DNA from: Phycisphaerae bacterium
GTDB taxonomy: Bacteria > Planctomycetota > Phycisphaerae > UBA1845 > Fen-1342
Reading direction: 5' to 3'
NCBI GenBank assembly: GCA_963675745.2
Contig: CAXXWX010000026.1
Coordinates: forward strand, 1-64,000
DNA: 64,000 nt
Part shown: one piece after another, positions 3,001 through 53,076 of the stretch
Numbering within the stretch: the stretch's first letter is position 1
Layout of the letters: every line of letters starts with the position of its first letter
Notes under the pieces: model-generated
The model's input: only the letters and a program-made list of their open reading frames with translations
The model's database searches: none
Told to the model about the DNA's origin: nothing
Translations under genes and position numbers: made by a program

Positions 3001-3967
3001 AGTCGCAGCGGGCCAACGCGACGCGGACACGCCGGTTCCGGTTACTTACTGGCGCGATGGCCGGACAGAGGAAGCCAAGCTGCCGCCCGGCAAGATGGGA
3101 GTGCAACTGGATCGCGGTGCCCCAGACTCCGGCCTGCGCCTCATGGCGATGCGTTCCCGCGGCCACGATCAGGCAGTGGCCGAGATCAGCGCGACCGATC
3201 AGGTGCGTCTGCACGGCGGCGCGTTGCAGCCCTTGCTTGGTACCGAGCGCGAGGCGCTGGCGATCACGACACTGATCGAAGGCACGAATGGCTCGGCTAC
3301 GATCTTGCTCCAGGAGGACGCGACGGTCGGTCAACTTGAGGCCGCGGCTAATGGTAAGCGGATCCTGCACCTCGCCACGCATGGCCTGACCGGCTCGAGC
3401 GAACGCCCCTACGACGCCAGCCTGGCGCTCACCCAGCCCGACACGCCGACGCGGGACGACATCGGCTTCCTGACGCTGGACCGCCTGATCGCCAGATGGC
3501 GTGGCAAACTCAGCGAGTGCGAGCTGGTCGTACTGTCTGCGTGTGACACGCAGCGCGGCGTCAAGGTCGGCGACAGTGTGATGGCGTTACCGTGGGGCTT
3601 CTTCTACGCCGGGGCACCGACTGTCGTGGCCAGCCTGTGGAAAGTGGATGACACAGCAACGGCGCTGCTGATGACGCGGTTCTATGAGAACTTGCTGGGG
3701 AGCTACGACAAGCCGCGCGAAATCGGCGGGCGGACCTTCGCAGCTGGCAGTGAGATTCCCAAGGCTGCAGCGCTGCGTGAAGCTAAGCAGTGGCTGCGTT
3801 CGCTGACGGCTGACGAGGCTTACGAGCTGGCCAGGCAACTGCCAGACGATGCGACACGCGGCTCGATCCGCCAGCGGCAAACGCGGGTCAGTTCGCCGGA
3901 GACCGTCCATCCCTACGAACACCCGTACTACTGGGCGGCCTTCATTCTGATCGGCGACCCGGGATAG
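72..3967 (+). CDS. Secreted/membrane-anchored TPR-(PDZ)-CHAT caspase-like protease, copy 1 (split by several indels at about 2530-2850)
   Basis: N-terminal hydrophobic segment (likely start ATG 90 after GGAGG); nine 42-aa kinesin-light-chain-like TPRs; SERGRGRALLDLL linker; PDZ-like segment; CHAT dyad HLATHG and LSACDT; C-terminal HPYYWAAFILIG. ORFs 72..2627 and 2861..3967 join when aligned with the paralog at 59147. Confidence 0.9.
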
Positions 3968-4074: not shown

Positions 4075-4767
4075 TCAGGCAAGCTGCCGCCGTCTGGCGG
4101 CGGCCATGGCAAGCAACAGCAAGCCACCGGGTTCAGGCACAATCCGCAGGTTGTCGAAATATGTCCAGCCGTCCGCCGAACACCCGTACTGCTCGAAGAC
4201 CTCGACACCGACGGCGATCTCGTGCAAACCTGAAAATGTGCTGACGTCCACGACCACGTCGTAATGAGTGCCTCCGAGGTTATTGACCCACAGTTTGGAC
4301 TGTCCGACCGCGAAGTAACTGTTGGTGTGGCCACCGCCAAGCAGATTGACGTCGAACGCTATCGCTGGCACGTCGGTCAGATCAATGGCCTGATAGAACT
4401 CGAGATAGTCCCCCGGGACGTGTGGGCCCGCGGTGCTGGCGAAAACATACAGCGACCAATCCCCGTCCGAACGCCAGCCGACAGGGTCATAGAACCGAAC
4501 GCCGTGGCCGTTGGTGGCGCCCTGGTTTCGCCAAGACCAGTCTGCTGGCATGCCCCAGGTCGAGGTGTCGGAGGTGCTGATTCCGTTTGGCATTGTGCCG
4601 TCGGGTTCGTCCTCGAAGCTAGGGTTGTTGATTGTGGCGGCCGACGCCGCGACGACGGCCGTGGGCGCGAGAGATTCGTCGGCCGCGTTCAGCACACTCG
4701 CGGGCAGCAACAGCAATGCGATCGACGCGCCAATCATGCTTCTCAGGATTCTTCGGTCCTTGTTCAT
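4075..4767 (-). CDS. PEP-CTERM sorting domain secreted protein
   Basis: Signal peptide; NPSFE carbohydrate-binding-like start; C-terminal VPEPGGLLLLAMAAARRR. Confidence 0.85.
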   Translation of the reverse strand: MNKDRRILRSMIGASIALLLLPASVLNAADESLAPTAVVAASAATINNPSFEDEPDGTMPNGISTSDTSTWGMPADWSWRNQGATNGHGVRFYDPVGWRSDGDWSLYVFASTAGPHVPGDYLEFYQAIDLTDVPAIAFDVNLLGGGHTNSYFAVGQSKLWVNNLGGTHYDVVVDVSTFSGLHEIAVGVEVFEQYGCSADGWTYFDNLRIVPEPGGLLLLAMAAARRRQLA

Positions 4768-5236
4768 CTGTCGTCTCCAGTTCCACAAGGCCTCTGTTGG
4801 TTCTCACTTGTCAGCCTGCCTGCCGATGGTGCCGGCACGACCAACGCGGCACTGCGGTATTCAATCCAGGCGGCTTTCGGCTGCCCGAGCGGACAACGCG
4901 GTCGAAGGTCGCTGACCGCTGAGTCGCCATTGTGACGGCCTGCCGATATAGCCAGTCAGCCAAACGTGCCGGTGCGCAACGCGCCGTGGTGTAAAAAGAC
5001 AGAGAACTGTCGGGCTGGACTGGTTCGCTGCTGTAGATTCTCGCGCTCGAGGTGTGACGCGCTTTGCGAAACCGCGACGGGAAGCATCAGAGCCAATTGA
5101 CATTGCTCGCCGGCTACAAATCGGCGCGGCACTTTCGGCGTGTATCGGTATCATTCACCAGCGACGAAGTCATGCTGAGTATGACCTATCTCGCGGCGCT
5201 TGAGTCACGTGACATACACGCGGCTTGTTGTGGGAG

Positions 5237-5506
5237 ATGCAGATGATCGAGGTTTACATAGCGGCGGATCTCGCCGACGCGCAGCTTGTATGCAACATGC
5301 TCGAAGATCATGGAATCAAGGCAGTTGTGCAAGGCGAGCTGCTGAACATCGCACAGGGCGGCGTGCCCTGTGGACCGACCACCGCGCCGACCGTGTGGGT
5401 CAATGAGGTGGACGCGGAGAAGGCGCGCCGCCTCATCGACGAAGTCGAGCAACGACGTCGCCGGCGGCGCGAGACTGATGCGTCGAATGATGTAGATTCC
5501 AACTGA
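5237..5506 (+). CDS. DUF2007-like putative signal-transducing protein
   Basis: EVYIAADLADAQLVCNMLEDHGIKAVVQGE...VWVNEVDAEKARRLI pattern; GGGAG RBS. Confidence 0.75.
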   Translation: MQMIEVYIAADLADAQLVCNMLEDHGIKAVVQGELLNIAQGGVPCGPTTAPTVWVNEVDAEKARRLIDEVEQRRRRRRETDASNDVDSN

Positions 5507-5755
5507 ACCTCGCGCGGGTAGCCCGCGCGATCGTCTGTACACGTGGCGCGTCCGCCACCCGACAAGGTTGCGGCGGTCGCGGACGTTGCATGGCGCCGTG
5601 TTCCCCCATCCCGCGGACCAGAAGTGCCGTAGGCCCTCTTCGGAATGTGACCGTGACCGTGGCAGAAGCTGAGCGCAGGCCGCAACCCGGTTTGATCCAC
5701 CGTGGCGTCGCGGTGGGCCATGTATCGGCATCTGCGGCTTGTGGCGAACGGAACC

Positions 5756-6937
5756 TCAAAGGCCTACGAGCAGCGCCACAAACTGGTCGATGTCACCATT
5801 ATTGACCCAGCCGTCCCCATTGATGTCGCCCAGCACAATATCGCAATCCGGATAATCGGCAGCGTACTGGACCGGATCGGACAGAGCCAGGGCAAACGCG
5901 TCGATGTCGCCGTTGTTGACCCAGCCGTCGCAGTTGAGGTCGCCGATGGGCGCGACTCCGGCGACGCGGAACCCGATGGGGGCGTACTCGTGGATCGGGG
6001 CACCGTAGCCGCGAAACACCGAGAGTAGCGCGAAGTAGTTTGTGCCGAAGGACCCGCCCCGTCTCCCACGTGCCACACCGATGACCGCCTCATTCCACTC
6101 GATGACGTTACCCCCTTGGTCAAACGTACCATACGGACTGTCGGACAGTCCGAAGTACCCGACCTCTGTGCGCCAGTACGGACCGCCGATCGTGTACTGC
6201 CACGGGTAATGAAGATCGAAGTCGTAGAAATTCGCTGAGTTTCCGGTGTCTCCGGCTGGATGCCCATTGTCCGGGGTCGTGTCGCTGCCCATCGGGTAGT
6301 AGAAGTAGTTCCCTGTCAGGCCGTCGTTATAGTGATACGCCGCCTTGTACCACTCGTCCTCCGACGGAATCACCCACGTGGCATCCGGTTCACGCGCAAC
6401 GGCCAACAGGTCGGCGTCACTCACTGCCCCGTTGAGGACATACGAACCATCTTCCGTCGTGGTGAGCCCCTGGAGCCCCGACGGCTGGTCATTGTGCAGC
6501 CAGTTGCAAAACCGCGCCGCGTCGCCCCAGGAAACGAAATTCACGGGACGGTTTGCCCAGTCTGGAGCCACACTGTACGTGTAGCTGCCCGGGCTGCCGT
6601 GACGCTGGATATTGCAGCCGCGGACCCAGTCACTTACGTCGGCCATGGCTTCGTTATACAGCCCGTAGGTGTCCGTGGCGGCAATGGCGTTTAGGAACTC
6701 CGTGTACTGGCCAGCCGTCACCTCGTACTTGCCGATCTTGTACACGTAGTCCACGGCGCCATAGCCGGTAGTGCCGTCTTGCATAACTTCTGTGTCCTCG
6801 GCATTGCCCGGGTTGCCCACGGTGACGGTCTCCAGGCTCGTCAGGCCGTCGGCCATATTGAACACGTCCGCCTGTGCGGGGTGTGCGTAGACCAATAGCA
6901 AACCCGCGCACCCCGTCAGCGTCGCAAGTCCGCGCAT
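5756..6937 (-). CDS. Secreted FGE-sulfatase/SUMF1-fold protein with C-terminal dockerin-like domain
   Basis: Signal peptide; motifs GKYEVT, PVNFVSW, PSEDEWYKAAY, DQGGNVIEW, RGGSF, IGFRVA; tail GDLNCDGWVNNGDID...GDINGDG. Confidence 0.85.
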   Translation of the reverse strand: MRGLATLTGCAGLLLVYAHPAQADVFNMADGLTSLETVTVGNPGNAEDTEVMQDGTTGYGAVDYVYKIGKYEVTAGQYTEFLNAIAATDTYGLYNEAMADVSDWVRGCNIQRHGSPGSYTYSVAPDWANRPVNFVSWGDAARFCNWLHNDQPSGLQGLTTTEDGSYVLNGAVSDADLLAVAREPDATWVIPSEDEWYKAAYHYNDGLTGNYFYYPMGSDTTPDNGHPAGDTGNSANFYDFDLHYPWQYTIGGPYWRTEVGYFGLSDSPYGTFDQGGNVIEWNEAVIGVARGRRGGSFGTNYFALLSVFRGYGAPIHEYAPIGFRVAGVAPIGDLNCDGWVNNGDIDAFALALSDPVQYAADYPDCDIVLGDINGDGWVNNGDIDQFVALLVGL

Positions 6938-7420: not shown

Positions 7421-8074
7421 ATGCAAGGGGTGGCTGGGCTCACTGACGATACCGTTCGCGCAGCGGCCGAGGGGTCGCGGGAGGATCTCTCTCGGCTCCT
7501 GGAAGCGCTGCAAACGCAGGTACGACTGATGGTCGCAGCCCGACTCAGCCCCACACCCGCGCAGTTACACGCCGTCGATGACACGGCCCAGCTCGTGATG
7601 ACGGCGCTCTCCGAGGGCATCGCTCGCCTGGAGCGTCGAACCGTCGCCGGGCTGAGGGCCTATGCCTCCGGCATCGTCGCGCGCAAGGTTGCTGATCTTC
7701 TGCGCGGCCGCGGCGAAGGAGGGAAGCAGCACCCGCTGGCCCGTTCGCTGGACTCCACCGTGACCGCCTTTTCACATGCCGGCGGGTTGTGGCAATTGCT
7801 CTCGGCGTCGGACACCACGCCCCGGAGCGCGGCCGACCGAGCCGAGCAGGTTGCGATCCTCCTGAGAGAGCTGGGGCAGCTCAAGGCGGAATATCGCCAA
7901 ATCATCACGCTGGCGTTCTTCGACCAGTTGCCGATGGCCGAGATCGCCGAGCAACTCGACAAATCGCGGCCAGCCGCGTCGATGCTCCTGATTCGCGCCG
8001 TGCGTGCGTTGCGACGAAACATGATCGGCACCTCAACGATCGGGCACCGCGATGGCCAAGCCCCCGGAACATGA
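7421..8074 (+). CDS. ECF sigma-70 factor (kinase-associated)
   Basis: Region 2 (VDDTAQLV...LRAYASGIVARKVADLLR) and region 4 (YRQIITLAFFDQLPMAEIAEQL...LLIRAVRALR); overlaps the start of the downstream kinase. Confidence 0.85.
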   Translation: MQGVAGLTDDTVRAAAEGSREDLSRLLEALQTQVRLMVAARLSPTPAQLHAVDDTAQLVMTALSEGIARLERRTVAGLRAYASGIVARKVADLLRGRGEGGKQHPLARSLDSTVTAFSHAGGLWQLLSASDTTPRSAADRAEQVAILLRELGQLKAEYRQIITLAFFDQLPMAEIAEQLDKSRPAASMLLIRAVRALRRNMIGTSTIGHRDGQAPGT

Positions 8075-11000
8075 TCCCTCCGAAGAAGCATACGCCGACA
8101 AGGTGGAGGAGGCCCTCAAGGCGTTCTGGGGCGGCAACAGCATCCCGCTCGAGGAGCTACTGGTGGACTCGGATGACGCGACCGTACCACCTGTCGCCAA
8201 GTTGCTCGGCGGTGTCGTCGGCCAGCGCAATGATCCCTCTGCCAAGACGCGCCGGCCGACACAAATCGGCGACTACCGCATCATCCGCGAGTTGGGTCGG
8301 GGCGGCATGGGGGTGGTCTACGAGGCCGAGCAACAGAGCCCGCGCCGACCGGTGGCGCTCAAGGTCGTGCGTGGCGGTGCGTACGTTGACGAGCACCACG
8401 TACGCCTCTTCCAGCGTGAGGCTCAAGCCTTGGCCCGGCTCAAACACCCGTTCATCGGCGGAATCTACGAGGCCGGCCGAACCGACGATGGGCAGCACTT
8501 CTTCGCGATGGAACTGGTCCGCGGCGTGCCGCTGCTGAAGTACGTCAGCGTGAAAAAGCCGCCAATCCGCGAGCGCCTGGCCCTGTTCTGCAAGATCTGT
8601 GAGGCCATCAACTACGCTCACCAGCGCGGCGTCATGCATCGCGACCTCAAGCCGGGCAACATCCTGATCGACGCCGACGGTAACCCGAAGATCCTCGACT
8701 TTGGTCTGGCGAAGATCACCGACGCGGACATCGCTGTAACGACGGTGGTGACGGAGATCGGCAAGATCCAGGGCACGCTGCCGTACATGAGCCCGGAGCA
8801 AGCTCGCGGCAACCCGGACGAGATCGACCTGCGCAGCGACGTTTACTCCCTCGGCGTAATCCTCTACGAGCTGATGACCGACCAGCGGCCGTACGAACTC
8901 GGCCAGGCGATGCTGCACGAGGCCGTCCGCGTGATCTGCGAAGCGCCGCCGCGCAAGCCGAGCACGATTATCCGCCAGCTTCGCGGCGACCTGGAGACTA
9001 TCGCGCTAAAGGCCCTGGAAAAGGAACCGCGTCGCCGCTACCAGAGCGCGACCGCATTCGCGGAGGACATTGAGCGTTATCTAACCGACCAACCAATCCA
9101 GGCCCGTCCACCGAGAGCGCTGTACCAATTCCGCAAACTGGTGGCCCGGCACAAGGCCGCATTTGCGTTCGTGGGTGTGCTGTTCGTTGTGGCCGTTGGA
9201 TCTGGCGCTCTGATGTCCATCCAGGCGGAGCGCAATCGCCAATTGGCGGAGAGCGAGCGGCGCGCGAAGGAGGACGCCCTTGCGGCGCGGGACCGGGCCC
9301 GCGAAGCGCAGGCCGAAACCCAAAAACGCGCTGACGAGCTGAGGATCGTCACCGAGTTCCAGGAATCCATGCTCGGCGAGATCGACGCGCGGCAACTTGG
9401 GCGGGCTCTGTTCGACGACTTGCGCGCCCAGGTACGCGAGTCGTTGGAAGCAGAGGGCATATCGCCTGCGGAGATTGACTCTGTGATCGATGGTCTCAAT
9501 TACACGCTACACCGCGCGAACGCCACAGACATCGCCGTGAGCTTTGTGGACGAGCAGTTGCTCGGTAGAGCAGCGAGGGCGATCGAGACGGACTTCGCCG
9601 ATCAGACCCTGGTCCGCGCGGCACTCCAGCAAACCGTGGCGACCACATACTGCAAGATAGGCCGGTACCTACTGGCGACACCCTTGCAGGAAGCCGCGTT
9701 GGACACCCGCCGGGCTGAGCTTGGCGTGGACCACCCGGACACGCTGGCCTCGATCGACAACATGGGCTACGTGCTGTATTTACAGAGTAAGCTGGTCGAA
9801 AGCGAGCCGTATTTCCGCCAGGCGCTGGAGGGTCGCCGCCGTGTGCTCGGCGACGACCACCCAGACACGTTGAGGTCGATAGGCCACATGGCCTGGCTAC
9901 TCGAGTCCCAGCGCAAGCCAGCCGAAGCCGAAGGATTCTGTCGTGAGGCATTAGACGGCCGCCGCCGCGTGCTGGGCGACGATCATCCGAACACGCTGAC
10001 CTCCATAAACGACATGGGCGCCCTGCTCCAGGCCCAGGGCAAACTGGCCGAGGCCGAACCGTACTACCGCGAATCGCTGGAGGGCCACCGCCGGGTGCTG
10101 GGCGAAGATCACCCGGACACGCTGGCCTCGATCCACAACATGGGCGGTCTGCTCCGTGCGCCAAGGCAAGCTGGCTGAGGCCGAGTCGTACTACTGCGAG
10201 GCGCTTGAGGGTTGCCGTCGCGCGCTCGGCAACGATCACCCTGATACGCTGACGTCGATCCGCGCTGTAGGCGGTCTGCTCGTGTACCAGGGCAAGCTGG
10301 CCGAGGCTGTGTCGTACCACCGCGAGGCGCTTGAGGGCTGCCGTCGCGTGCTCGGTAACGATCATCCAGATACGCTGAAGTCGATCGACAACATGGGCGG
10401 CCTGTTCCGGAGGATGGGCAAGCTCGAACAGGCTCTTGGCTATCGCCGCGAGGCGCTTGAGGGCTGCCGTCGCGTGCTCGGTAACGATCATCCAGATACG
10501 CTGAAGTCGATCGACAACATGGGCGGCCTGTTCCGGAGGATGGGCAAGCTCGAACAGGCTCTTGGCTATCGCCGCGAGGCGCTTGAGGGCCGCCGCCGCG
10601 TGCTGGGCGACGACCACCCGGATACGCTCGCCTCCATGCGTAACTTGGCGTTATTGCTGGAGGAGCAAGGTCTGCTGGCTGAGGCCGAAGCACTGTACCG
10701 CGAGGTCGTGGCTGGCCGTCGCCGGGTGCTGGGCGACAAGGATCCGGAGACGGCGAGTTCGCTCATACAATTGGGGGTGAATCTCGTCGCACAGGAGAGG
10801 TCTGCCGAGGCGGAACCCGTGCTGCGAGAGTGCTTGAAGTTGCGGCAGGACATACTGGAAGAGGGCCACTGGCTGACCTTCTCCGCGAAGAGTGTACTCG
10901 GAGAGGCCCTGGTCGGGCGAGGCGCGTTTACGGAGGCCCGGCCGCTGCTCGTGGGTGGACTAGCTGGCCTCCAAGAGAAATCGGAGGATATCCCGGACCG

Positions 11001-11263
11001 CTTCCGCACGGCACGCCTCCGCGAGGCCCACGAGCGCATCGTCCAGCTCTTCGATACCTGGCACGCCCGCCGAGCCGGAAAAGGGCTACGACCAGAAGGC
11101 CGCCGAGTGGCGGGCGAAACTGGAGGCGGTCAAACAGTCAGACACGGATGATGTTGAGAGCCCGGATTCGGTGGCCAACGGTGCTGCTTCGCAACCCGGC
11201 CCCAGTCAAGGCGAGGAGGTGCCGAACCCCGGACGGCAAGGAGCCGGCGAGAAGAGCCCGTAA
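8052..11263 (+). CDS. Membrane Ser/Thr kinase with C-terminal TPR array (indels at about 10160 and 11067)
   Basis: GRGGMG, VALK, HRDLKPGN, DFG and YMSPEQ motifs; TM helix; about 10 42-aa TPRs. Correcting the frame gives tail EPEKGYDQKAAEWRAKL...SP* ending at 11263, homologous to the tail of the 28072 kinase. Confidence 0.85.
10321..10590 (+). repeat. Exact 126-bp tandem duplication of one TPR unit
   Basis: 10321-10446 equals 10447-10572, plus a partial third unit. Confidence 0.9.
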
Positions 11264-11265
11264 CG

Positions 11266-13132
11266 ATGCAGACCTCCGCCAGAACATGAAGGTTCCGAGC
11301 AATACGCCGACCAGGTCGAGCATGCCCTGGAGGCGTTCTGGCGCGGCGACTCGTCGGAGCTCGAGAATCTGGTGGCTTCGGATGACATGACCGGCCCCGG
11401 CGTCGGTGAGTTGCTGGCTGGCGTCGTCAGCCCCGATACGGCGCCCACTGTCACCATAGCCAGCGAATCCGCCGCTCCGGGATACAAGATCATCCGCGAG
11501 ATCGGCCGCGGCGGGATGGGCGTGGTTTACGAAGCCCAGCAGCAGGACCCGCAGCGGCACGTCGCCCTCAAGCTCCTTGGCCAGAAGGTCTCCGGCGACG
11601 AGTATCGCAGCAAGCTGTTTCGCCGGGAGATTAACACGCTGGCCCGGCTGAATCACCCGGCCATCGCCACGATCTACGAAACCGGCCAAACCGAGGATGG
11701 GCAACCGTTCTTCACCATGGAGCTCGTTGATGGCGTTCCGCTGACGCGATACGTCCGCGAGAACCACGTTCCTATCAAACGCCGGCTCGAGTTGTTCGCG
11801 CGGATCTGTGACGCCGTCCACTATGCTCATGAGCACGAGGTGATCCATCGGGATCTCAAGCCGTCGAACATACTCATCGACGCCGATGGCAATCCGAAGA
11901 TCCTGGACTTCGGTCTGGCGCGCATCACCGATGTGGACCTGACACAGACGACGCTCGACGCCGAGACTGGGCGCATCATGGGCACGCCGACGTACATGAG
12001 CCCCGAGCAAGCCCGCGGCGAGCCGGACCGGATCGACGCCCGCAGCGACGTGTACTCACTAGGCGTGATGCTCTACGAGCTGTTGACTGACAAATTGCCG
12101 TATGTCCTGAGCCGGGCACTTTCGCACGAGGTAGCCCGCGTGATCTGTGAGCAGCCACCGCGAAAGCCAAGCACCATCAGCCGGGTTCTGCGGGGCGACG
12201 CCGAGACGATCGTGCTGACGGCGTTGGCGAAGGAGCCCGCCAGACGTTACCAGAGCGCCGGGGCGCTGGCGGCTGACATCCGACGTTACCTGGATGGCGA
12301 GCCGATCGAAGCGAGGCGTGACAGTTCATGGTACGTGCTGTGCAAGCGTCTGCGCCAGCACCAGCTCGTGGTGTTGGCCGGAACGCTAAGCGTGCTGGTC
12401 CTCGCCACTGCCGCTATCTTCAGCGCTGATGCGTGGCGGTCGTACCGCGACAGCTCAGTGAGCACCGAGCGCGCCTATCGCATCTGGCGCGCTTGGCACG
12501 ACGCGCCCACCATCACATCCTCAGATTTGAAGATCAGTCTATACCGCGAGTATTCCATCGATGACTTTCGTGCCTTGGGTACTATTGGCGAAGACTCAAC
12601 CGATGCGTTGTTCGACGACGATGTACGCATTAACGTCAAGCTGCCGCGGCCAGCGTACTGCTATCTCCTCGCCTTCAATCCCAATGGCGCCCTGCAGCGC
12701 TGCTACCCTGAGGATGAGCGCACACCGCCGGCACTGCTCGATGAGCTCATCTACCCGGCCGGGGAGAGAGACTACTTCGGTCTGAACGACGGTGTCGGCC
12801 TCCAGGCGTTCGTTCTGATCGTGTCGCACAAGCCGCTGCCGCCTTATGACGAGTGGATATTGCGAGTCGGCGCTCTGCCATGGCAGGCCGTGCATGCCAA
12901 GGGCGTCTGGCGTTTCGATGGTAAGCGCTTCAGTATGGCCCCATCCGCTCGGGGCACGATCCGCGAACGGGCCGCGCCGCCAAAGCTGTTTGCGGATGTC
13001 TGCCGACAATTGCAGGCCACCCCCAACGTCGACACGATCCAGGCCATCGCGTTTCCAGTCCTGCCGACGGAGACGACCGGTCCCGGGGCTGAGGGAACAG
13101 GAGACGAGACCGAAGGGCAGCCGACGCCGTAA
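11266..13132 (+). CDS. Membrane Ser/Thr kinase with C-terminal DUF4384-like domain (indel just after the ATG)
   Basis: Full kinase motifs; TM helix; DUF4384-like VRINVKLPRPAYCYLLAFNPNG...CYP...GLQAFVLIVSHKPLP. In-frame sequence upstream of 11372 (PPEHEGSEQYADQVEHALEAFWRG) matches the N-terminus of the 8052 kinase; ATG 11266 lies 2 nt after the previous stop. Confidence 0.85.
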
Positions 13133-13168
13133 GGATCGCCTATGGCAAAGGCGCGCTCCCGTGGCGTG

Positions 13169-13465
13169 CTATCGGCCACGAAACTCCACCGGCGCGGCGC
13201 CCTGGCTGGCATCGGAGTGGTGGTTGGCGCCCTGCTGCTGAGAACGCGGCGGCGAGTCGACGGAGCTGGCGTCGCGCGTGTTTGTCCCCGATTGCTGGTG
13301 GAAAACGGCCAACCGCTCCCGCTGAACCGGACAAGCAACCTGGTCCTTTTCCGAGCCCGAGCCGCTCAAAGGCGGCAACAGGATGCAGAGCTGGACCGCA
13401 ACGGTGACGAGGACGCTCAGCAGTTGAACGAGTGTGTAATCAACATTACGTTCGCAGAATCGCAT
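13169..13465 (-). pseudogene. Degenerate prepilin/DUF1559-type N-terminal fragment
   Basis: YTLVQLLSVLVTVAVQLCILLPPLS...VACPVQRERLA aligns without gaps to [25 protein letters not shown]...[11 protein letters not shown] of the 43325 protein. Confidence 0.5.
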
Positions 13466-13728
13466 GGTCATCTCCCGATGTGCCGCCAGCACTGTGAGCC
13501 GGGCGGCAGTGGCCCTTTATATACGCCAGTCGCAATTCCCACCGCGAGCGCAACACGCAATCCACGGTCAGACTCCGCGCTGCCGGCAGGGCATCCCGAG
13601 TGCATGCATCATGCGGTTCGTCGGCTTCCGGGTCCGGCGATTCTGTCGCCTTGCTACGGAGCTGCCGCGCGGTAGAATCTCACTTGTCACTTCAGATTGG
13701 GCTTGGGGCAAGAAAGGGGGCGCATATC

Positions 13729-16700
13729 ATGTGCCGCACACCACGCCATTGGGCAATTGTCGCTGGAATGCTCGCCGCCGTGCTGTTGACTTTGCCAGCG
13801 CTGGGGGACATGCCGGAGACGCAGCCGGCTGAAGAGCGGTTCATGAGCGACGAGGAGTTCCTGAAGATCGGGGAGGAGTTCGACCTCGACGCGTTCATCG
13901 CCGAGCTGGATCCGCCGACGGTGGAAGAGATCATCGCCAGCCGCGAGCCGATCCCGTCGGTCGAGCAGATCCTCGATGACCTCGAGCACCCGGAACGCCG
14001 ACCGAAGCTGCCAACGCTGCCGGAGGATGTAGCCCAGCAGATTGAGCAACTGAACAGGCGGATTGACGAGTTGATGCGGAAGGGGGTCATGGGCGGCGAT
14101 GCACAGTTGAAGGAGCAGACGCTGGATGAAGCAACCCCGCATGGCCGAGCAGGAGGTCGAGCTGCGCACCCAGGCCGGCCAGGCGCAGGACTGGCATGAA
14201 GTGGTCGATGCCCAGCTGCGCGCGACGTCCCTGAAGTACCTGCGCGAGCTGCCGATGAGCAGCCGCCGTAAGCTGTCCAGCGCTGACGTACGCGCGATTG
14301 ACCTTCACAGGCTCTTCGAGCAAGGGCCAGTACGACGGTGCGCTCGCCATCGGGCGTAGCCAGTTGGCGATCCGTCAGCGGCTCTTCCCCGGTGACCATC
14401 CGGACGTGGCGACGAGTATGAACAATGTAGCGGTCATTCTCAAAACCCGTGGGTCGCTGGACGAGGCCGAGTTGCTGATCCGCGAGGCGCTAGCGATGCG
14501 CCAGCGGCTCTTCCCCGGCGACCATCCGGCCGTGGCGACGAGCCTGGGCAACCTAGCGAGCCCTCTCCAAGCCCGCGGGGCGATGGCCGAGGCCGAGCCG
14601 CTCTGCCGCGACGCGCTGACGATGAACCAGCGGTTGTTTTCCGGCGACGATCCCGACGTGGCGACCAGCCTGAACGACCTCGCACACTGCCTGGGGCACC
14701 GCGGGGCGCTGCCGGAGTCTGAGGCGCTCTTCCGCGACGCGCTGGCCATGAAGCAGCGGCTATTCCCCGGGGACCATCCGGACGTGGCGGCCGGCCTGAG
14801 CAACCTCGCAGCCGTCCTCGAGACCAGTGGGGCACTGGCCGAGGCTGAACCACTCTACCGCGACGCACTGGCGATGTGGCAACGGCTCTTCCCTGGCGAC
14901 CATCCGAACGTGGGGATTGGCATGAACAACTTGGCGGCCATTCTTCGGGCGCGCGGGGCGCTGGCCGAGGCCGAGCCGCTCTGCCGCGACGCGCTAATGA
15001 TGTTGCGGCGGTGTCTCCCCCGCGACCATCCGAACGTGGCAGCAGGCCTGACGCAACCTGGCACGAGTTTTTGAGGCGCGCGGGGCGTTGGCTGAAGCCG
15101 AGGCATCTTACCGCGACGCGCTGGCCATGAAGCAGCGGCTATTCCCCGGGGACCATCCGGGCGTGGCACTGGGCATGAACAACCTCGCGGGTGTCCTCTG
15201 GGCCCGTGGAGCGCCTGCCGAGGCCGAGCTGCTCTTTCGCGATGGCTTGACGATGGTTCAGCGAGTGTTCCCGGGCGACCACGCGTACGTGGCGGTGAGC
15301 CTGAACAACCTGGCGCTAATCCTGAGGGCCCGCGGGGCACTTGCCGAGGCCGAGCCGCTCTGCCGCGACGCGCTAACGATCTTGCGGGCGGTGTTTCCCC
15401 GCCGATGAACCGCGCGTGGCGGCGGGCCTTAACAACTTGGCGCACATTCTCCAGGACCGCGGCGCGCTGGCCGAAGCGGAGCTGTTATTCCGCGACGCGT
15501 TCGACATGAGCGAACGGCTGCGCACGCAGATCATCGGCGGCGAGCAGGAACGAGCCGCCTTCGCGGGCGTGCTCGATCTCAGTGCCCGTGCCCACGCGTA
15601 CACGAACGTACTTGCCCAACTCCATCGTGAGGCCGAGGTGCTGAAGGTCCTGGAGCGTGGGCGGGCGCGGGCGGCCCTGGACCTGCTCGAACGCTCCGGG
15701 CGCGACTTGGTAGCCGAAACTGAGGCACTCGGGGATGCGGAGCGCTCGCGGCGCCTCGCCGAGGCCGAGGCTGCTGAGGAGCAGGCCCGCATCGATCTGA
15801 CCTCGACCGAGGCGCTGCTGGCCAGCCGGCGCAAGGAACGCGACACGCTGGAGCGCCGCGAGAACCTCGACGCTCAAACCAAAGCCCGCCAGCTCGCCGA
15901 GTATGACCAGCAGATCGCTGGGCTGCTCGAAGACGTGAAGCGCAAACGCCAGGAACTTACGCAGGCCGGCATCGCTGTGCTGACCGAACTGCGGGACCTG
16001 TTTCCTGTTGCCCAGGCGTTGACCACAGACGAGATTCTCCGTGGGCTTTCGCCAGACGAGGCCGTCGTCAGCTTCAGTTGGGGCGGCGACAGCATACTAG
16101 TGGCCAGTGCTACGGGGGACACAACCGGTGCGGTGATCGTGGCAAGCGACAAGGACGCGGTCAAACAACTTAGCGAGCTCGCCGGTGAGGTCCGCGAGGC
16201 GATCGCGATTCGATCGAGCGCAGCGAGCGCGCTGGATCCGGCGAAGACGCGCGAGCTGGCCGCGGCGTTGTTCCCGGAGCCGGTGTGCGCGGCAGTCAGC
16301 GGCGTTCGGCGGCTGGTCATTCTGCCAGACGGTCCATTGAACGACATCCCAATCGAGATGCTCACCGAATCCGTGCCGGCGCTGGCGGACAAGACCATCG
16401 TCTACGCGCCTTCGGCGACGGTGTACGTCAACCGAAAGACCACGCGGCCACAAGTTGCCAAGGCAACAGACTCAAGGCCGGCCGATCGCGCTGCTGCTCG
16501 GCGACCCGGTCTTTGAGCGGGGGTATCAGGAGCCGGACTATCCCGAACAAGGCGTGCCTGGTGGTCGCCGCGCCCGAGGGCGGCAACGCTGCCAAGGTCG
16601 GGTTGCGGCGGGGCGACGTGCTGCTGCGCTATGACGATCGGGAGCTGGATGGACAGGCCGCGCTGGTTGAGGCACTCGGCTCCGTCAATGAAGCCATCGC

Positions 16701-17695
16701 GAAGGGCGAGCGTCCGGCGGATGAAGCGGTCAAGATCGCCTACTGGCGCGACGGTCAGGAAGCGGAAGTCGAACTGCCGCCGGGCCGGAATGGGCGTGCA
16801 GATTCAGCCGGGCAACCCCGCCGAGATCCTCCGCTCGATGACCCGGCTCGAGCGTGGCTTCGACGCGATGGCGGCCGAGGCCAACGCGCTCGACCAGGTG
16901 CGCCTCTTCGGCGGCTCGCTGGTGCCTCTGCCGGGTACACGTCGCGAAGCCGAGGCGATCGCGGCGCTGTTCGCGCAGGCAGCCGCGCGGCAGGCGCATG
17001 ATGCCACGTTCACGTCGCCAGCGGCCTGTCTGCTGCTGGATGAGCAGGCCACCATCGCCAACCTGAGCGAACGTGTCGCCGGCGTGCGCTACCTGCACCT
17101 GGCCACGCACGGGCTGATGGGCAGTGCCGAGCGCCCCTACGATGCCAGCCTGGCGCTGACGCAGCCGGAGACGCCGACGGCGGGTGACATTGGCTTCCTG
17201 CGGCTACAGGATCTGATATCCAGGTGGACCGGCCGGCTCGACAACTGTGAGCTGGTGGTGCTGAGCGCCTGCGACACGCAGCGCGGCATCCGCCGGGGCG
17301 ACAGCGTGATGTCGCTGCCGCTGGGGTTTTTCTTCGCCGGAGCGCGGACGGTGGTGGCGAGCCTGTGGAAGGTGGACGACACGGCGACGGCTGTGTTGAT
17401 GACGCGGTTCTACGAGAACCTGCTGGGCGAGTTCGACGAGGCGCGCGACATCGCGGGTCGTACCTACGCTGCCGGTCAACCGATGCCGAAGGCCGCGGCG
17501 CTGCGAGAGGCCAAGCTGTGGCTGCGCTCCTCGACGAACGACGAGATCACCGAGTTGGTGTCCCAGCTACCAGCCAGCGACGACCGCGGCACGGTCCGTG
17601 AGCGCCCGCCCGTGAGCGAATCGGCGGCAGGCGCTCATCCCTACGAGCACCCGTACTATTGGGCGGCGTTCATCCTGATCGGTGACCCGGGTTGA
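13729..17695 (+). CDS. Secreted TPR-(PDZ)-CHAT protease, copy 2 (split into at least 6 ORF pieces by indels)
   Basis: Signal peptide MCRTPRHWAIVAGMLAAVLLTLPALG after AAAGGGGG; about 9 LFPGDHPDVA-type TPRs; LERGRARAALDLL; PDZ-like AAKVGLRRGDVLLRYD; HLATHG, LSACDT, HPYYWAAFILIGDPG. Confidence 0.85.
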
Positions 17696-18915: not shown

Positions 18916-19754
18916 TGGAACCTCCAATCTGACCATCGAGTCATCTGGTATTCAGTTTGCATCCAACCACTAAAGTGGCGCCATCATCGCCGGTGAATGG
19001 CCAGGTAACCGTCCAGCAACGCCGTAGTCCTACCCACGTTGGACCGTTCATGGAGTCCTTTGAATCCTCCTTTCTGCGGGTTTTACGGCTCTCTACTCCA
19101 CCGTTCCGGCAAGGCGAACCACTGTGCCACACAGCATGCACCGGCTGGCCCCGGACTTGCCCGGCGGTCAGGGTCCCGCTGTTCCTCCGGCATCAACAGG
19201 CCAGAGGCGCGTCCGGGGTGATTAAACAAGAACCGCACAGTTTTCGATCGACGGACGCTGACCTGTAGCACGTACGTATCTGACACACCGTGCCATTTCA
19301 GCAACAGGGGCCAGCAAGCAGCTGCAATGATGGTCACGTCGCCCAGCCATTGAATGGGTGCGGATCCGACATCACGTTCGCAGGAGCCCATGGTCGCCTC
19401 CCAATCACGCTGCTGGCACCGCTATGGTGCGCGGAAGTCATTCGTCATGTGCACTAGTCGTGGCTTCTACAAGAGCGCAACGCACAATCCGCCGCGATAT
19501 CTTGCGTTGCCACCAGTCATTAGACGTCTGCCGACACGGAGCTGAGCCGTCCGATCGGCCACGCAAGAACCGCTGGTCCATCGCATGGCGGCGTATTCCC
19601 TAACACATCCAGCGGTCGAGTTCGACCGATTTGATTGCTGGTGGCGCGGAGCCCTGATTTCCCTCTTCTCACCGCGGCGGCAGATCTGATAAGCTTGAAA
19701 GCTGGGTCAGTCGTCCGTGGTGACCTTGGGCCCTTGTGGGCCAGGAGGTGCAGC

Positions 19755-20910
19755 ATGGCGACTGAAAAGGTCGGTGTGTATCGCAAGTACCACGGAGCGA
19801 TTCCCATCGACAAGTCTGGCAGGCCGTTGCCCAAGAGTGCATGGCCGCGGGAGCGACCATTCCGGTGGGCAGCGAGGTGGTACGGTTTGGATGGCAAACG
19901 GTTTAGCAAGAGCTTCGAAAACAGAAAGGAGGCAGACCGGTTCGCCGAGAGGAAACAGGTGGAAGTACGAGTGGGAAAGGGCGATCAGCCGCGCGCGACC
20001 ACGCTTGAGGAGTTTTCCAGGATGTATCTCGACCTACGCGGTGATCTCGCTCCGACGACCAGGATCGAGCAGGGACGCACTTTGCGGTTTCTGAGGGAGT
20101 TCTTCGGTCACACGACGATCGTCAGAAAGGTCACATCCCTGGACGCGCGACGCTTCGTGGCGTGGTATCGTGAGCGGACGCATCGCGGTCGAACGCCGGC
20201 GCCCGCGACTGTGAATAAGGCCGTCCGCGAGTGCAAACGGATCTTTCGCGAGGGCCGTCGAGTGCTCACTGATCCGCGAGAATCCGTTCGATGGGATTCG
20301 CCAGGAGAAGGTCGGGCAGCGGGCGTGGCACCACATCAGCCCAGCGGAGTGCCGAGAACTGATCGAGGTATCGCCGTCGCTTCGTTGGCGAGGCATGATC
20401 ATGCTCGGCTACTGTTGCGGGCTGCGACTGGGTGAGGTGATCAACCTGACCTGGTCGGATGTGGACTTCGGGAAGCATCGTTTGCGGGTTGTTCGCAAGA
20501 CTGCGTCGAAGCACCAGGCCGCCTGGACGCCGAAGGACAAGGACATGAGAACTGTTCCGTTGCCTGAAGCGGCGGTCAGTGTCCTGGCAGAACTGCAACT
20601 CTCTGCCTCCGACGGGCATGAGTACGTGTTCGTCATCTCGAGAGGTCCCACGGCAGGTGAGCATCTGAAGCAGTCGAATCTCTGGCGTGACTTCCAGGTA
20701 ATCCGCAAAAAGGCTGGTCTTCCGAAGTGCTCGTTCCACGACCTTCGGAAAAGCTACTGCACGAATCTCGCGGACGCTGTCCCGTTACACGTCGTGCAGG
20801 AGTTGGCTGGGCATGCGGACATCCGCACAACGCGCAAGCACTATTTACAGATTCGCGACGAGCAGATTGATGCCGCCCGTTGCGCACTCGAAGAGGTGAT
20901 GCGATCGTGA
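19755..20910 (+). CDS. Tyrosine recombinase/integrase (frameshift at about 20250)
   Basis: N-terminal arm-binding-like WAARWYGLDGKRFSKSF; SAM-like middle; catalytic GLRLGE, K, FHDLRKS, LAGH, HY; AGGAGG RBS. Confidence 0.9.
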
Positions 20911-20923
20911 GTCTGGCCGGGAG

Positions 20924-20945
20924 TGACCCAGTTCTTGACCCACTC
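20924..20945 (+). promoter_or_regulatory. Putative integrase arm-type sites TGACCCA-N5-TGACCCACTC (left)
   Basis: Directly after the integrase stop; same motif and spacing as 55984-56005. Confidence 0.65.
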
Positions 20946-21066
20946 GTCCGGGAACAACGTTCGTTTACGTGTTCTCGGACCGATAGAAGTACAGGCATGG
21001 GGATGCAATTCCATGCCATGGAGTGACTTGCAATCCCGACTGCGTAATCGGGGCCAACCACACCAC

Positions 21067-21085
21067 TGCCAGCTCACACAGCTGG
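21067..21085 (+). mobile_element. att-like core site TGCCAGCTCACACAGCTGG (copy 1)
   Basis: Exact 19-bp direct repeat of 55843-55861; internal inverted repeat CCAGCT-cacac-AGCTGG; about 160 bp from the integrase stop. Confidence 0.7.
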
Positions 21086-21108
21086 ACGTCATTGGCCGGC
21101 CTGCTTGG

Positions 21109-21402
21109 CTACATTGCTACCCGGCTTCCACACGCCGGGCAGTATCGAGCACCTGGGCGGACGCTCGCCTCACACACCGAGCACACATATCCCCGCGGCA
21201 AGACGCGAACGCGCCATCGAGACGGCAACAGAATGAGTAGCGCCACGATGACGGTGAGCGCCGTACCGGTCAGATACTCGGCGCGAATCGCCTTGGCCAG
21301 TGGAATGACGCCAATGCGGCAAAGGCATTCGGTGATGACCGGCAGGCCGGCCACAAACAGGATGCCGATCACTAGCGCAATGACAATGAGCTTACGAAAC
21401 AT
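21109..21402 (-). CDS. Small membrane protein with C-terminal zinc ribbon
   Basis: Two hydrophobic segments; CSVC...YCPACG. Confidence 0.75.
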   Translation of the reverse strand: MFRKLIVIALVIGILFVAGLPVITECLCRIGVIPLAKAIRAEYLTGTALTVIVALLILLPSRWRVRVLPRGYVCSVCEASVRPGARYCPACGSRVAM

Positions 21403-21528
21403 TGTGCACCTCCGTCCCTGCCATCGTAGCGCGGGTGGGCAAAGCGCGCAAGTGGTTTTGAAGAGAGCTATCGCTAGCTCGGGGTGGGAATCGCGGCCAG
21501 AAGAGCGGCCGCGATAAGAGAGGTGAAA

Positions 21529-21840
21529 TTAGAAGGTGAAGGGCGAACGATCGGAATCATCGCCAAGGAGTTTGGTCAGCTGGCGCCAAAATGGGCCTCC
21601 GGGTTGAAAGTTCTCGTGCTCCCATGCAAGCGCGTGAGCGCGGGAGGGTGATTGATGAACGACTGGGCATCGCTGCCGGCCCGATCGATGCGCCGATCGG
21701 ACGGTCCAGCGCTGCAGCCGGTTGTCGAACTCGACGTGGCTTGCCCGTTCGATCCGGACGACGCCCAGCTCGCCGAGCGGCACACTGTCGTCCCACAGGC
21801 CGCGGATGCGGCCGTCGGGTGTGATGTGTAGCTTGGTCAT
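21529..21840 (-). CDS. Hypothetical protein of the DUF1257/DUF2997 module
   Basis: ITPDGRIRGLW...IERASHVEF...RAHALAWE; overlaps the upstream stop (ATGA coupling). Confidence 0.7.
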   Translation of the reverse strand: MTKLHITPDGRIRGLWDDSVPLGELGVVRIERASHVEFDNRLQRWTVRSAHRSGRQRCPVVHQSPSRAHALAWEHENFQPGGPFWRQLTKLLGDDSDRSPFTF

Positions 21841-22037
21841 CTGGTCTCCCTCCGGCTGTTCGACTGCGGAGGCAGGCGCTGGGCCTCGGGTTTGAGGCGG
21901 TCCTCAGTGACCGGACCGCCGAGGACAGTCAGAATCTGCTGCGTGGCTTGCGTACACGTCGCGTCGGTGAAGTCGATCGCATCGACCGTGCACGACCCGT
22001 CGGGTTTTATGATCATGCGGATGTGTTTGGTGCGCAT
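21837..22037 (-). CDS. DUF2997-like small protein
   Basis: IRMIIKPDGSCTVDAIDFTDATCTQATQQILTVLG...LKPE; GGAG RBS. Confidence 0.7.
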   Translation of the reverse strand: MRTKHIRMIIKPDGSCTVDAIDFTDATCTQATQQILTVLGGPVTEDRLKPEAQRLPPQSNSRRETR

Positions 22038-22077
22038 AGTCAATCTCCATTGATGGACGTTCGGGAAGGCGGCCCGC

Positions 22078-22491
22078 TTAACGGTAGCCGCCAATGACGA
22101 CCTCGATTTCACCGGTGTCGAGCATATGGCGTTCGACCGTGCGGCCGAGGGCGCGCTGCTGCCGGGCAACGGCGTGGTAGGCGTACTCCTGCTTGAGGTG
22201 GTTCTGCACTTCGGGATTGAACCGGTGCCGGCCGTCATACTCGCTAATCCAGGCGCGGTACGTGCCGTCCGGGAGCCGCTCCCAACCGATATCGTTAGCG
22301 GCCTGGCCGACGTGCTGCCGGCGGATGACGATGTGGGCCCGCTGTGGGCGCTCGTCGCCTTGGTAGCCGTACAGCGGGACGGCTTCCTCGTGCGTCTCGA
22401 TATGGCTGCGGTCGAAACCGACCGCGATGAGGGCTTCGATCAGGGCCTCGCGGTCCTTGAAGCCAGGAGTGCATTCAACGTAGTGGGACAT
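22078..22491 (-). CDS. DUF1257-like (Ycf35-like) protein
   Basis: MSHYVEC...KDREALIEAL...LYGYQGD.R...AHIVIRR...DIGW pattern. Confidence 0.75.
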   Translation of the reverse strand: MSHYVECTPGFKDREALIEALIAVGFDRSHIETHEEAVPLYGYQGDERPQRAHIVIRRQHVGQAANDIGWERLPDGTYRAWISEYDGRHRFNPEVQNHLKQEYAYHAVARQQRALGRTVERHMLDTGEIEVVIGGYR

Positions 22492-22579
22492 TGCGTGGTC
22501 TCCAATTGTTCCGGGGATAATGGAAGTACCGGGCGCAGGCGGGGCAGCATGACCCCGCCCGTGCCAACTGTGATGATGA

Positions 22580-23557: not shown

Positions 23558-23618
23558 GGATGGTCTCCAATCAGTTGGGGTTACAGGTTGTTGAGACTGA
23601 AAACGACCGGGAGTGTGA

Positions 23619-31000: not shown

Positions 31001-31345
31001 ATGGATCAGCTTTAGGGCTACTTCGCGGCGAGGTGTCTGTTGCTCGGCGAGGTAGACCACGCCCATGCCGCCTTCGCCGAGCTTTCGGAGCAGTCGATAT
31101 TGCCCGATCCACTGGCCACCGATCGCACGGTCCCTTGAATGAATCTGCTCAACACTGTCACCGCCGCTCGTTTGTAGGGCCTGCAACTCGTTTTCGAGCA
31201 AGAGATTTGCCTGCAGTTCCTCAAGCCGATTCCTGCACGCTTCGCAATGCTCCAAATGCGCTGCAACCACCGACCGCCAGGAAACGTCGAGCGAGTCGAC
31301 AACGTACTGCTCCAGTACACTGGTATCTGGACACGACTCAGGCAT
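28072..31345 (-). CDS. Membrane Ser/Thr kinase with N-terminal zinc-finger anti-sigma-like domain and C-terminal TPR array (frameshift at about 29175)
   Basis: HLEHCEAC; GEGGMG, HRDLKPGN, DFG, YMSPEQ; TM helix; about 10 TPRs; ORFs 29030..31345 and 28072..29244. Confidence 0.88.
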
Positions 31346-31356
31346 CCTAACCCTCG

Positions 31357-31980: not shown

Positions 31981-32084
31981 AAGCAAGGTCTCCCTCGCGA
32001 TCGGGGTCGCCCAAGCATGCTAAAACCGTTATTCAGCCTCACGCGACAGCCTTTGTGTTCTGGCGTGAGTGGTTCTCGTTTCGG

Positions 32085-45117: not shown

Positions 45118-45266
45118 TGCGACAGGTCCTGTGTCCGCTGTTGTAGATGGGAATCGCCGGTCGAGACCCTCTAGTCACGTGACTCCGCCAGCAGGCTTCC
45201 GGGGCCGTGATGTCATCCGAAACCCGGGAGCACTGCCGACCTATTGCGGTCTCACCATGGCATCTT

Positions 45267-53029: not shown

Positions 53030-53076
53030 GTTGACGCGTCGCGTCGAAACGATGCGACCCGCTGGTTAACGCGCGA

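Follow-up and report, generated by a model that had tools for sequence, protein, structure and literature searches.

The window analysed here, the first 64,000 nucleotides of an 876-kb contig (C26) in the 5.2-Mb, 91% complete genome of a Phycisphaerae bacterium, contains a locus in which a gene for an extracytoplasmic function (ECF) sigma factor is followed by genes for two transmembrane (TM) Ser/Thr kinases and for a caspase-like protease with tetratricopeptide repeats (TPRs), a PDZ domain and a CHAT domain. Comparison with related loci indicates that the conserved unit consists of three genes rather than four, namely the ECF sigma factor, a kinase-TM-DUF4384 receptor and an exported-type TPR-(PDZ)-CHAT protease. 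The receptor ectodomain and the protease carry a common, locus-specific Arg tag in floppy loops of their predicted structures, through which the two proteins are very probably coupled. As read from sequence, the protease may cut the receptor at the Arg of the tag, whereupon the kinase would phosphorylate the ECF sigma factor; to such a protease-activated receptor kinase switch we assign a probability of about 0.5. Labels of the form L0xx and P0xxx denote compared loci and ectodomain proteins, and C19, C20, C24, C26 and C28 are contigs of the same genome.

The genes of the locus

7421–8074, plus strand: ECF sigma factor (core); Pfam sigma-70 region 4/ECF match, TIGR02937 above its cut-off, TIGR02984 the best subfamily match but below its cut-off
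8052–11263, plus strand: Ser/Thr kinase-TM-TPR array; two frame changes; apparently an accessory duplicate, without the Arg tag
11266–13132, plus strand: Ser/Thr kinase-TM-DUF4384-like receptor (core); frame change just past the ATG; 53% identity over 637 amino acids to the intact L055 orthologue
12518–13069, plus strand: predicted periplasmic Ig-like beta-sandwich ectodomain (extended DUF4384) of the receptor; AlphaFold2 mean confidence score (pLDDT) 95
12950–12970, plus strand: Arg-Gly tag of the receptor (RGTIRER) and putative cut site; lies in the loop modelled with the lowest confidence
13729–17695, plus strand: exported-type TPR-PDZ-CHAT protease (core); leader 13729–13806, His 17108, Cys 17270; seven frame changes
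17585–17605, plus strand: tag RGTVRER in the C-terminal loop of the protease, matching the receptor tag
72–3967, plus strand: second exported-type TPR-PDZ-CHAT protease; frameshifted at about 2600–2850; tag RGSIRQR (3857–3877) of the window-receptor class
59147–63561, plus strand: third exported-type TPR-PDZ-CHAT protease; frame changes confined to the last 55 codons; tag RGTIRER (63450–63470), identical to that of the receptor

The layout is as the original prediction described it. The ECF gene shares 23 nt with the TPR kinase gene, which starts at ATG 8052, and the frame-corrected stop of the latter (TAA, 11261–11263) leaves a gap of two nucleotides (11264–11265) before the ATG of the DUF4384 kinase at 11266. 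Both kinases retain their Lys, HRD and DFG motifs and have a single TM helix with basic residues ahead of it (9156–9212 in the TPR kinase and 12365–12421 in the DUF4384 kinase), past which lie the TPR array and the DUF4384 domain, respectively. The co-oriented protease gene starts 600 nt past the stop of the DUF4384 kinase. The protease at 72–3967 had likewise been recognised, together with the N-terminal hydrophobic leaders, the intact His/Cys dyads and the PDZ domain, which is inserted within the CHAT domain; the third protease had been overlooked.

Recurrence of a three-gene unit

A profile built from the ectodomain retrieved 25 genome and 32 metagenome loci. The counts that follow rest on local profiles, by which frameshifted genes could be missed. 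A CHAT protease adjoins the receptor at 20 of 21 genome loci and at all five metagenome loci having 4.5 kb downstream, and ECF, kinase and protease are all present at 16/19 genome and 3/4 metagenome loci having both flanks. The closest intact operon, L055, is headed by an orthologue of the window ECF and continues with kinase-TM-DUF4384 and leader-TPR-PDZ-CHAT with no gene in between. A second circuit in the same genome (C26:137–150 kb) has the order ECF, protease, DUF4384 kinase, protease. The components also occur fused, as kinase-TM-DUF4384-TPR-CHAT in L037, P0077 and P0118 and as ECF-kinase-TM-DUF4384 in P0122. Recurrence spans records from Gemmataceae, Isosphaeraceae, Pirellulales and Planctomycetaceae, and the closest named homologues of the window protease are from Phycisphaerae.

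Genome-wide, there are matches to 55 kinases, 46 sigma factors (region 2), six CHAT and two DUF4384 domains. Only 3/51 kinases lie within 6 kb of a CHAT gene, and both DUF4384 kinases are included in these three. The ectodomain family comprises 1551 clusters at 50% identity (E≤0.001); among 152 ectodomain proteins, 88 have a kinase by the local profile, five have a TIR or SEFIR head and most of the others are fragments. The recurrence expected of the original gene set hence holds for the trio of ECF, DUF4384 kinase and CHAT protease and fails for the TPR kinase, as set out below.

A shared arginine tag

In the receptor loop an Arg is found in 151/152 relatives and is followed by Gly, Ser or Ala in 150/152, counts that are to be read with the query profile already containing Arg-Gly; a plain search finds Arg-Gly in 129/151. 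The proteases have an Arg-Gly in a disordered loop ahead of the last strand in 100 of 116 homologues, as against 462 of 2400 control windows, and in a model of the L055 protease this loop is disordered (pLDDT<50 at residues 524–530). Two classes of tag are present in the genome. Class A consists of the window receptor (RGTIRER) and the window proteases (RGTVRER, RGTIRER and RGSIRQR), and class B of the second receptor (RGIEMEH), its proteases (RGTEMTH and RGTEVAH) and a further protease on another contig (RGAEVAH). Scored against both receptors, each of the six proteases reaches 12–22 with one and no more than 2 with the other. A genome-wide search with both tag patterns gives seven matches, six of them inside these genes. 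The two classes thus tie six proteases, some of them unlinked, to two receptors, three to each.

The tag also co-varies between loci. Automatic extraction passed 28 of about 35 pairs, the rest failing the pattern or being frameshifted (of six shown, five match by eye), and pairs were thinned to <60% identity (n=17). Over residues +2 to +8 after the Arg, the BLOSUM score is 10.2 for cognate and 0.3 for non-cognate pairs (0 of 200,000 permutations, p≤5e-6), whilst the residues before the Arg display no cognate match (p=0.28). When the receptor's own protease is compared with that of its nearest relative, it wins 14 times, ties once and loses twice (p=0.002). In a later test 400 other genomes of the class were searched, with only eight candidates scored per genome, and four genomes had matches. 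Four of the five receptor matches were confirmed, the exception being that of G176; three have an adjacent protease, whose cognate tag ranks 1, 1 and 5 of 20, the tag Arg having been picked by eye at 30–34 residues ahead of the last strand, as in the window. At one of these new loci, L101, both partners have switched from Arg-Gly to Arg-Asp-Pro.

A common cytoplasmic module of ECF, anti-sigma factor and TPR-CHAT protease is found in relatives (L016–L025). The proteases of these ten modules have no tag loop, and the anti-sigma factors have a conserved G[FIL]RG linker motif, a candidate cut site, in all ten.

Several variants of the layout were also encountered. At L063, L076, L100 and L102 the protease is convergent with the receptor rather than co-oriented, and the tag is still matched in most of them. 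A kinase-less FGE-sulfatase-CsgG-DUF4384 protein lies beside an exported-type CHAT protease at L010:6824–11450, with matching tags RGTVL and RGTIL, and L014:2276–6102 is an anti-sigma-headed form of the layout (ECF, anti-sigma-like-TM-Ig protein and exported-type CHAT protease). P0004, P0007, P0020, P0023 and P0051 are TIR- or SEFIR-TM-DUF4384 proteins, a Toll-like layout, with the Arg tag present.

The protease and the receptor ectodomain

The identity of the CHAT domain is clear from PF12770 scores of 160–167 bits against a cut-off of 24. Its His-Cys dyad is invariant in 90/90 homologues, and a hydrophobic leader, with export signals judged by hydropathy and by eye, is seen in 78 of 109 homologues compared with 46 of 2400 control windows. 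By its sequence the protease is catalytically intact and has an export-type leader. The genome encodes six proteases of this kind, three in the window and three elsewhere. The window protease shares about 70% identity with its intact L055 counterpart, the model of which matches the folds of DdvA, craspase and separase, with DdvA the best (Foldseek E 1.5e-8). A profile search of solved structures was dominated by TPR matches.

The units of the TPR array vary most at positions 6, 9, 13, 16 and 35, where the ratio of non-synonymous to synonymous polymorphism (pN/pS) is 1.0–1.5 against 0.55 overall. Since synonymous sites are near saturation, these values are not counted as positive selection; the pattern fits that of a putative ligand groove. 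The PDZ domain had been proposed to take part in sensing; a need for it is not supported, as it is detected in 13 and missing in 7 of 20 protease-bearing genome loci.

The ectodomain of the window receptor scores 18–22 bits with PF14326 (DUF4384), below the Pfam cut-off of 27; its paralogue reaches 27.4 bits together with its neighbours, and some family members pass. It is about 100 residues longer than the PF14326 model. The predicted structure is an Ig-like sandwich (pLDDT 95) in which the block containing the tag loop has a pLDDT of 73, compared with 90–98 elsewhere. Fold searches with the ectodomain yielded nothing beyond generic matches to Ig-like folds (Z≤7.2, root-mean-square deviation 2–3.6 over 84–125 residues), and Foldseek gave none at E≤0.001. 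Prediction of a complex between the L055 CHAT region and its cognate ectodomain scored 0.00 and is not used as evidence.

A proposed protease-activated receptor kinase switch

An exported-type clan CD protease with an intact dyad, whose partner has a constant Arg-small motif in a flexible loop, points to cleavage, and a cut at the Arg is likely. In the proposed mechanism the exported protease would be kept inactive in the periplasm until a ligand, either foreign or derived from damage, binds to its variable TPR array. It would then cut after the Arg in the DUF4384 loop, with the residues past the Arg setting the specificity for the partner, and the copy of the tag in the protease itself may be where the protease cleaves itself, or may plug the same pocket at rest. 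The nicked ectodomain may release or re-pair the kinase, leading to autophosphorylation, after which the kinase would phosphorylate the ECF sigma factor and the response would be switched on. Each receptor, that of the window and the second one, would receive input from three proteases bearing its tag, several of them unlinked, and the TPR kinase would provide the same ECF with further input independent of the tag. A possible route from nick to kinase activity is provided by PknS, which without its periplasmic domain is phosphorylated in the absence of a stimulus and phosphorylates EcfK (PMC13147305). For the cut itself Csx30 is a precedent, as it too is cleaved in a loop of its C-terminal domain (PMC10028731).

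A number of observations weigh against this scheme. With an assumed residue numbering of separase, and in a weak alignment counted from the catalytic Cys, the position of separase D2151 is occupied in the protease by Ala460, and mostly by Ala or Ser in its homologues. In separase, D2151 binds the P1 Arg (PMC9729208). Csx30 of the type III-E craspase system is cut within a small loop of its C-terminal domain with no single residue being essential (PMC10028731), and this precedent hence does not predict an invariant Arg. The one-sided co-variation of the tag fits a ligand groove equally well, and 6/17 pairs score 4 or less, two of them being negative. Receptor L099, one of the four newly confirmed, has no adjacent protease, and no matching protease was found in its genome, the other CHAT protein of which has no tag loop. 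With regard to the output, ECF-kinase pairs are generic in the Phycisphaerae genome, a co-oriented ECF preceding 25/51 kinases, and the ECF is missing at 3/19 loci. The window ECF does not have the QTTA-like motif that replaces DxxD in ECF43 sigma factors and keeps two acidic residues, and several ECFs at other loci retain the full acidic motif. Finally, six of the ten frameshifts in the interval are unbridged by other contigs among the indels listed, such that the window copy could be partly decayed.

Of the alternatives, the one that survives best is that the tag acts as a ligand or docking strand, the protease copy (intact, or as an N-terminus freed by self-cleavage) displacing the receptor's copy from a groove in the DUF4384 domain and so activating the kinase. 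Co-variation limited to the residues past the Arg is expected if one groove reads both copies, and a protease has otherwise no obvious need for the sequence of its substrate. Moreover, the Arg-Asp-Pro of L101 would make for an unusual P1'-P2', and the Arg-binding Asp of separase is not kept, whilst other acidic residues (E311 and D456) are invariant. Against this stand the invariance of the dyad and the Arg-Gly linker motif in the anti-sigma factors beside the cytoplasmic CHAT proteases at 10/10 loci. Clan CD cut sites also usually have this appearance, with a small residue after an Arg in disordered sequence, and a purely ligand-like tag is considered unlikely.

The sigma factor as probable output

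Gene order, the ECF-kinase fusion and the ECF43-type sigma factor of the second circuit all argue for the ECF as the output of the proposed switch, which is quite likely. The window ECF has an adjacent Hanks kinase and no anti-sigma gene, as expected of a kinase-associated ECF. The first Asp of the DxxD motif is missing from its sigma2.2 region, which reads AVDD, and a Ser/Thr loop is located directly upstream of the motif. The ECF of the second circuit (TIGR02999, 185 bits) has a QPTA motif like that of ECF43.

Cleavage could also be real and have a different consequence, either as an off-switch that sheds or resets the receptor or with an output other than the ECF, the kinase or TIR head acting on other targets to cause, for example, growth arrest. 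The three loci without an ECF and the several unrelated ECF types at others would be in keeping with this, as would the TIR/SEFIR heads (5/152), which require no sigma factor, and the kinase PCk beside SAVED-CHAT, which resisted cloning and is likely toxic (10.1101/2023.06.23.546230). Against it, the ECF lies directly ahead of the kinase in most loci, overlaps a kinase gene here and is fused in P0122, and loss of the ectodomain activates PknS (PMC13147305). An off-switch or separate output is thus rather improbable.

The TPR kinase

The TPR kinase is 58% identical to the neighbouring DUF4384 kinase over 392 amino acids. In a quick tree of the kinases it clusters with the DUF4384 kinases of this locus, L056 and P0003 (SH-aLRT 92), DUF4384 kinases being otherwise scattered across the tree. 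It thus looks like a tandem copy of the DUF4384 kinase whose ectodomain has been exchanged and, by analogy with PknS-EcfK, like an additional input to the ECF; nothing observed ties it to the protease.

This bears on the original prediction of a full circuit, in which both kinases are partners of the protease, TPR and PDZ sensing are required and the whole is a mobile immunity element. The TPR kinase does lie inside the operon as a sister of the DUF4384 kinase, its repeats most resemble those in the protease at 72–3967 (about 60%), and integrases are nearby. However, a kinase-TPR gene is present at none of the 19 genome and none of the four metagenome loci with two flanks (frameshifted genes could hide some) and is missing from L055, the closest intact operon; the TPR ectodomain has no Arg tag; and of the 13 kinases with TPR arrays among the 51 in the genome, 12 are away from any CHAT gene. 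The absence of PDZ at 7/20 loci and the position of the L055 operon between glycogen phosphorylase and enolase genes also speak against it. A place for the TPR kinase in the core is not supported, and the full circuit is improbable. That the locus is a partly decayed, accidental grouping of signalling genes that abound in planctomycetes is a very remote prospect despite the 55 kinase and 46 sigma matches in the genome and the ten frameshifts in the interval, as it is largely refuted by recurrence across four planctomycete groups, along with the fusions and the co-variation of the tag, and contigs from public runs remove at least two of the shifts.

Frameshifts and duplications

The ten frame changes are distributed as two in the TPR kinase, one in the DUF4384 kinase and seven in the protease, the last counted against the intact orthologue. 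An extra base at 10154 and another at 15053 are absent from contigs of public runs carrying the same DNA, although these runs may be the source sample itself, and the shifts near 14137 and 15400 are each spanned, with one gap, by a further contig of such runs. The remaining six shifts are unbridged among the 12 of 21 indels listed. Of the TPR genes, 8/11 are split in the first 150 kb of the contig and 0/15 elsewhere. The frameshifts are at least partly assembly errors, and assembly error is a likelier cause than local decay. A scan for promoters and terminators was at chance level (two found, 1.5 expected), and visual inspection of the sequences ahead of the ECF and protease genes revealed no common promoter of ECF type. 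No RNA data set was listed as containing the locus.

On the minus strand, the 600 nt that separate the protease from the kinase contain a small frame (13169–13492) that by eye resembles a decayed prepilin-type leader. The contig begins inside the promoter of the first protease, and positions 1–694 are near-identical to 59076–59769, the promoter of the third. The FGE-sulfatase region downstream of the first protease is also duplicated (4659–6936 and C26:64881–67158, 91%), which together suggests that protease and neighbours were copied as a block. Two further pairs of ECF and TM kinase occupy 29030–31986 and 43330–45869 on the minus strand; one has TPRs and is frameshifted, the other has a zf-HC2 domain at the kinase N-terminus, and the second pair has an 85% copy on C24. 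A 3.0-kb duplication of 99% identity (34397–37421 and 45967–48991), either real or an assembly artefact, lies inside two giant genes for beta-helix surface proteins with relatives on C20 and C24.

Mobile-element context and a possible role in defence

Two features in the window bear on mobility:

19635–25187, strand unassigned: tyrosine integrase, DUF3150 and AAA genes; integrative-element context, outside the circuit
52977–53032, plus strand: 3' half of a tRNA-Met gene resembling an attachment site (att); another copy at C26:82324–82367, full gene and integrase on C28

The placement of the circuit on a mobile element is thus borne out in part, by integrases and att-like tRNA fragments nearby; neither a border nor a compositional shift was found. 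An integrase lies 2 kb downstream, the pair of AAA and DUF3150 genes also flanks a protease on C19, and two insertion sequence genes are present. The tRNA-Met called by ARAGORN at 52958–53029 is probably an att remnant, since only its 3' 56 nt match the full C28 gene. The att-like copies lie to the right of the locus, and a left border would fall beyond the assembled contig. GC content (64%) is that of the genome, and the tetranucleotide distance lies between the median and the 90th percentile. The region is a plastic island rather than a delimited element. A C28 tRNA-Met element running into the start of C26 was considered and rejected, as no overlap of the contig ends was found.

Near the second att copy there is an integrase with a group II intron maturase, beyond which lie an additional operon for ATP synthase and a Fic gene (L004:14993–17862; L088:1–5866 and 12325–13689). 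The strongest tetranucleotide outlier of the region is L091 (C26:170–180 kb; 0.077 against a median of 0.014). On C19, an unlinked class B protease lies beside two genes that by eye resemble those for ADP-ribosylglycohydrolases, together with AAA and DUF3150 genes (L003:1194–3197 and 9780–15647), and a transposase fragment is fused in frame upstream of this protease.

Independence from CRISPR, as originally proposed, is upheld by the lack of any RAMP-family match in the 91%-complete genome and of any cas gene among the 39 window open reading frames scanned. Immunity is plausible, and the odds of a role in defence are a little short of even. The TIR/SEFIR heads, the expansion of paralogues, the patchy spread and the known CHAT-sigma systems point towards such a role; with the window query the ectodomain was not found in 24 family relatives, and four relatives showed no syntenic block. 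A PADLOC 2023 scan of 63 proteins pointed to no named defence system close by, giving only generic kinase, AAA, TPR and reverse transcriptase matches and one SoFic 80 kb away, and the neighbours of the L055 operon are metabolic genes. A bolder and rather doubtful extension is a barcoded receptor system for periplasmic immune surveillance, in which TPR-variable exported proteases, several of them unlinked for each receptor, would cut kinase or TIR/SEFIR receptors at the Arg loop, the new N-terminus would serve as a tethered ligand and self-cleavage of the protease would amplify the signal by laying bare the same peptide. Signalling of this kind would be akin to that of PAR or Toll/Spaetzle.

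Comparison with known systems

The closest precedent is DdvA/DdvS of Myxococcus xanthus, in which a periplasmic TPR-CHAT protein is linked via one TM helix to an ECF (PMC11506125), an arrangement indicated here by hydropathy and gene order. Control of an ECF by a periplasmic TPR-CHAT protein is hence already known, a precedent absent from the original prediction, as is the shared Arg tag. The fusion proteins share the topology of DdvA. Unlike here, DdvA is a single chain whose zinc anti-sigma head sets the sigma factor free, and at the window locus no chain combines such a head with a TM helix and TPR-CHAT; instead there is a separate exported-type protease and a Hanks kinase head, a tagged DUF4384 domain intervenes, and no CBASS or CRISPR regulon was seen. 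According to the DdvA authors, the trigger and the cut of the periplasmic TPR-CHAT protein are unknown (PMC11506125).

The type III-E craspase (Csx29, Csx30 and CASP-sigma; 10.1101/2022.08.17.504292, PMC10028731) likewise pairs TPR-CHAT with a sigma regulator, and DUF4384 forms the C-terminal domain in one class of Csx30 (10.1101/2022.08.17.504292). As described in those papers, it differs in being cytoplasmic and RNA-triggered via Cas7-11, in acting on an anti-sigma factor rather than a kinase and in a cut that is neither at Arg nor residue-specific. A type III-E CASP, marked by Cas7-11, a CRISPR array and Csx30/Csx31, is not indicated here by the scans for RAMP-family and cas genes given above.

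In the ECF43 pairs PknS-EcfK and PknT-EcfP (PMC13147305, PMC8999054), a TM Hanks kinase, with periplasmic TPRs in PknS, phosphorylates the neighbouring ECF. The window ECF and TPR kinase share the layout of PknS-EcfK, and the ECF of the second circuit has an ECF43-type motif. In contrast, the window ECF is not ECF43-like, and the cited accounts of these pairs describe no protease partner. A CRISPR-independent combination of ECF and TPR-CHAT is already catalogued as ECF54 (an actinobacterial ECF with a carboxypeptidase-regulatory-like protein at +1, subtilase and TPR-CHAT), and DUF4384 as the ectodomain of a membrane regulator in the anti-sigma factors of ECF25 (PMC7826278). As catalogued, both groups are without a kinase, and TPR-CHAT and DUF4384 fall in separate groups; in the window the gene following the ECF encodes a kinase, and a subtilase-like gene follows the second circuit only. 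The SAVED-CHAT/PCaspase/PCc-sigma/PCk system of Haliangium ochraceum (10.1101/2023.06.23.546230) also clusters CHAT, sigma factor and a Ser/Thr kinase, the last proposed to be protease-controlled. It is reported there as cytoplasmic and cA3-triggered, with a second caspase required and no receptor ectodomain. Planctomycete TM kinases with periplasmic TPRs are common (PMC11032199), the kinase-DUF4384 architecture has been listed (10.1101/2025.01.12.632604) and DUF4384 is found on orthocaspases (PMC6426788, PMC7475262). No description of the trio or of the tag was found in the literature searched, subscription papers and closed supplements aside; Wiegand et al. 2020, on planctomycete ECF groups, may describe the gene set.

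The family provides periplasmic caspase-like signalling with a putative substrate, a bond at which that substrate may be cut and a sequence rule from which partners can be predicted, and makes such signalling directly testable using two soluble domains. DUF4384 would gain a role as an ectodomain read by a protease. If the proposed switch is true, two known controls of ECFs, proteolysis and phosphorylation, would be combined in one path, and the 1551 clusters with their orthogonal tags could supply programmable protease-receptor pairs. Set beside these systems, the parts and the broad logic are known, whereas the proposed link from protease to kinase with a co-evolving tag is new as judged by the literature searched. 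The window contributes a genome in which two classes of tag assign unlinked proteases to receptors, co-variation on one side of the Arg only, and evidence that the TPR kinase lies outside the core.

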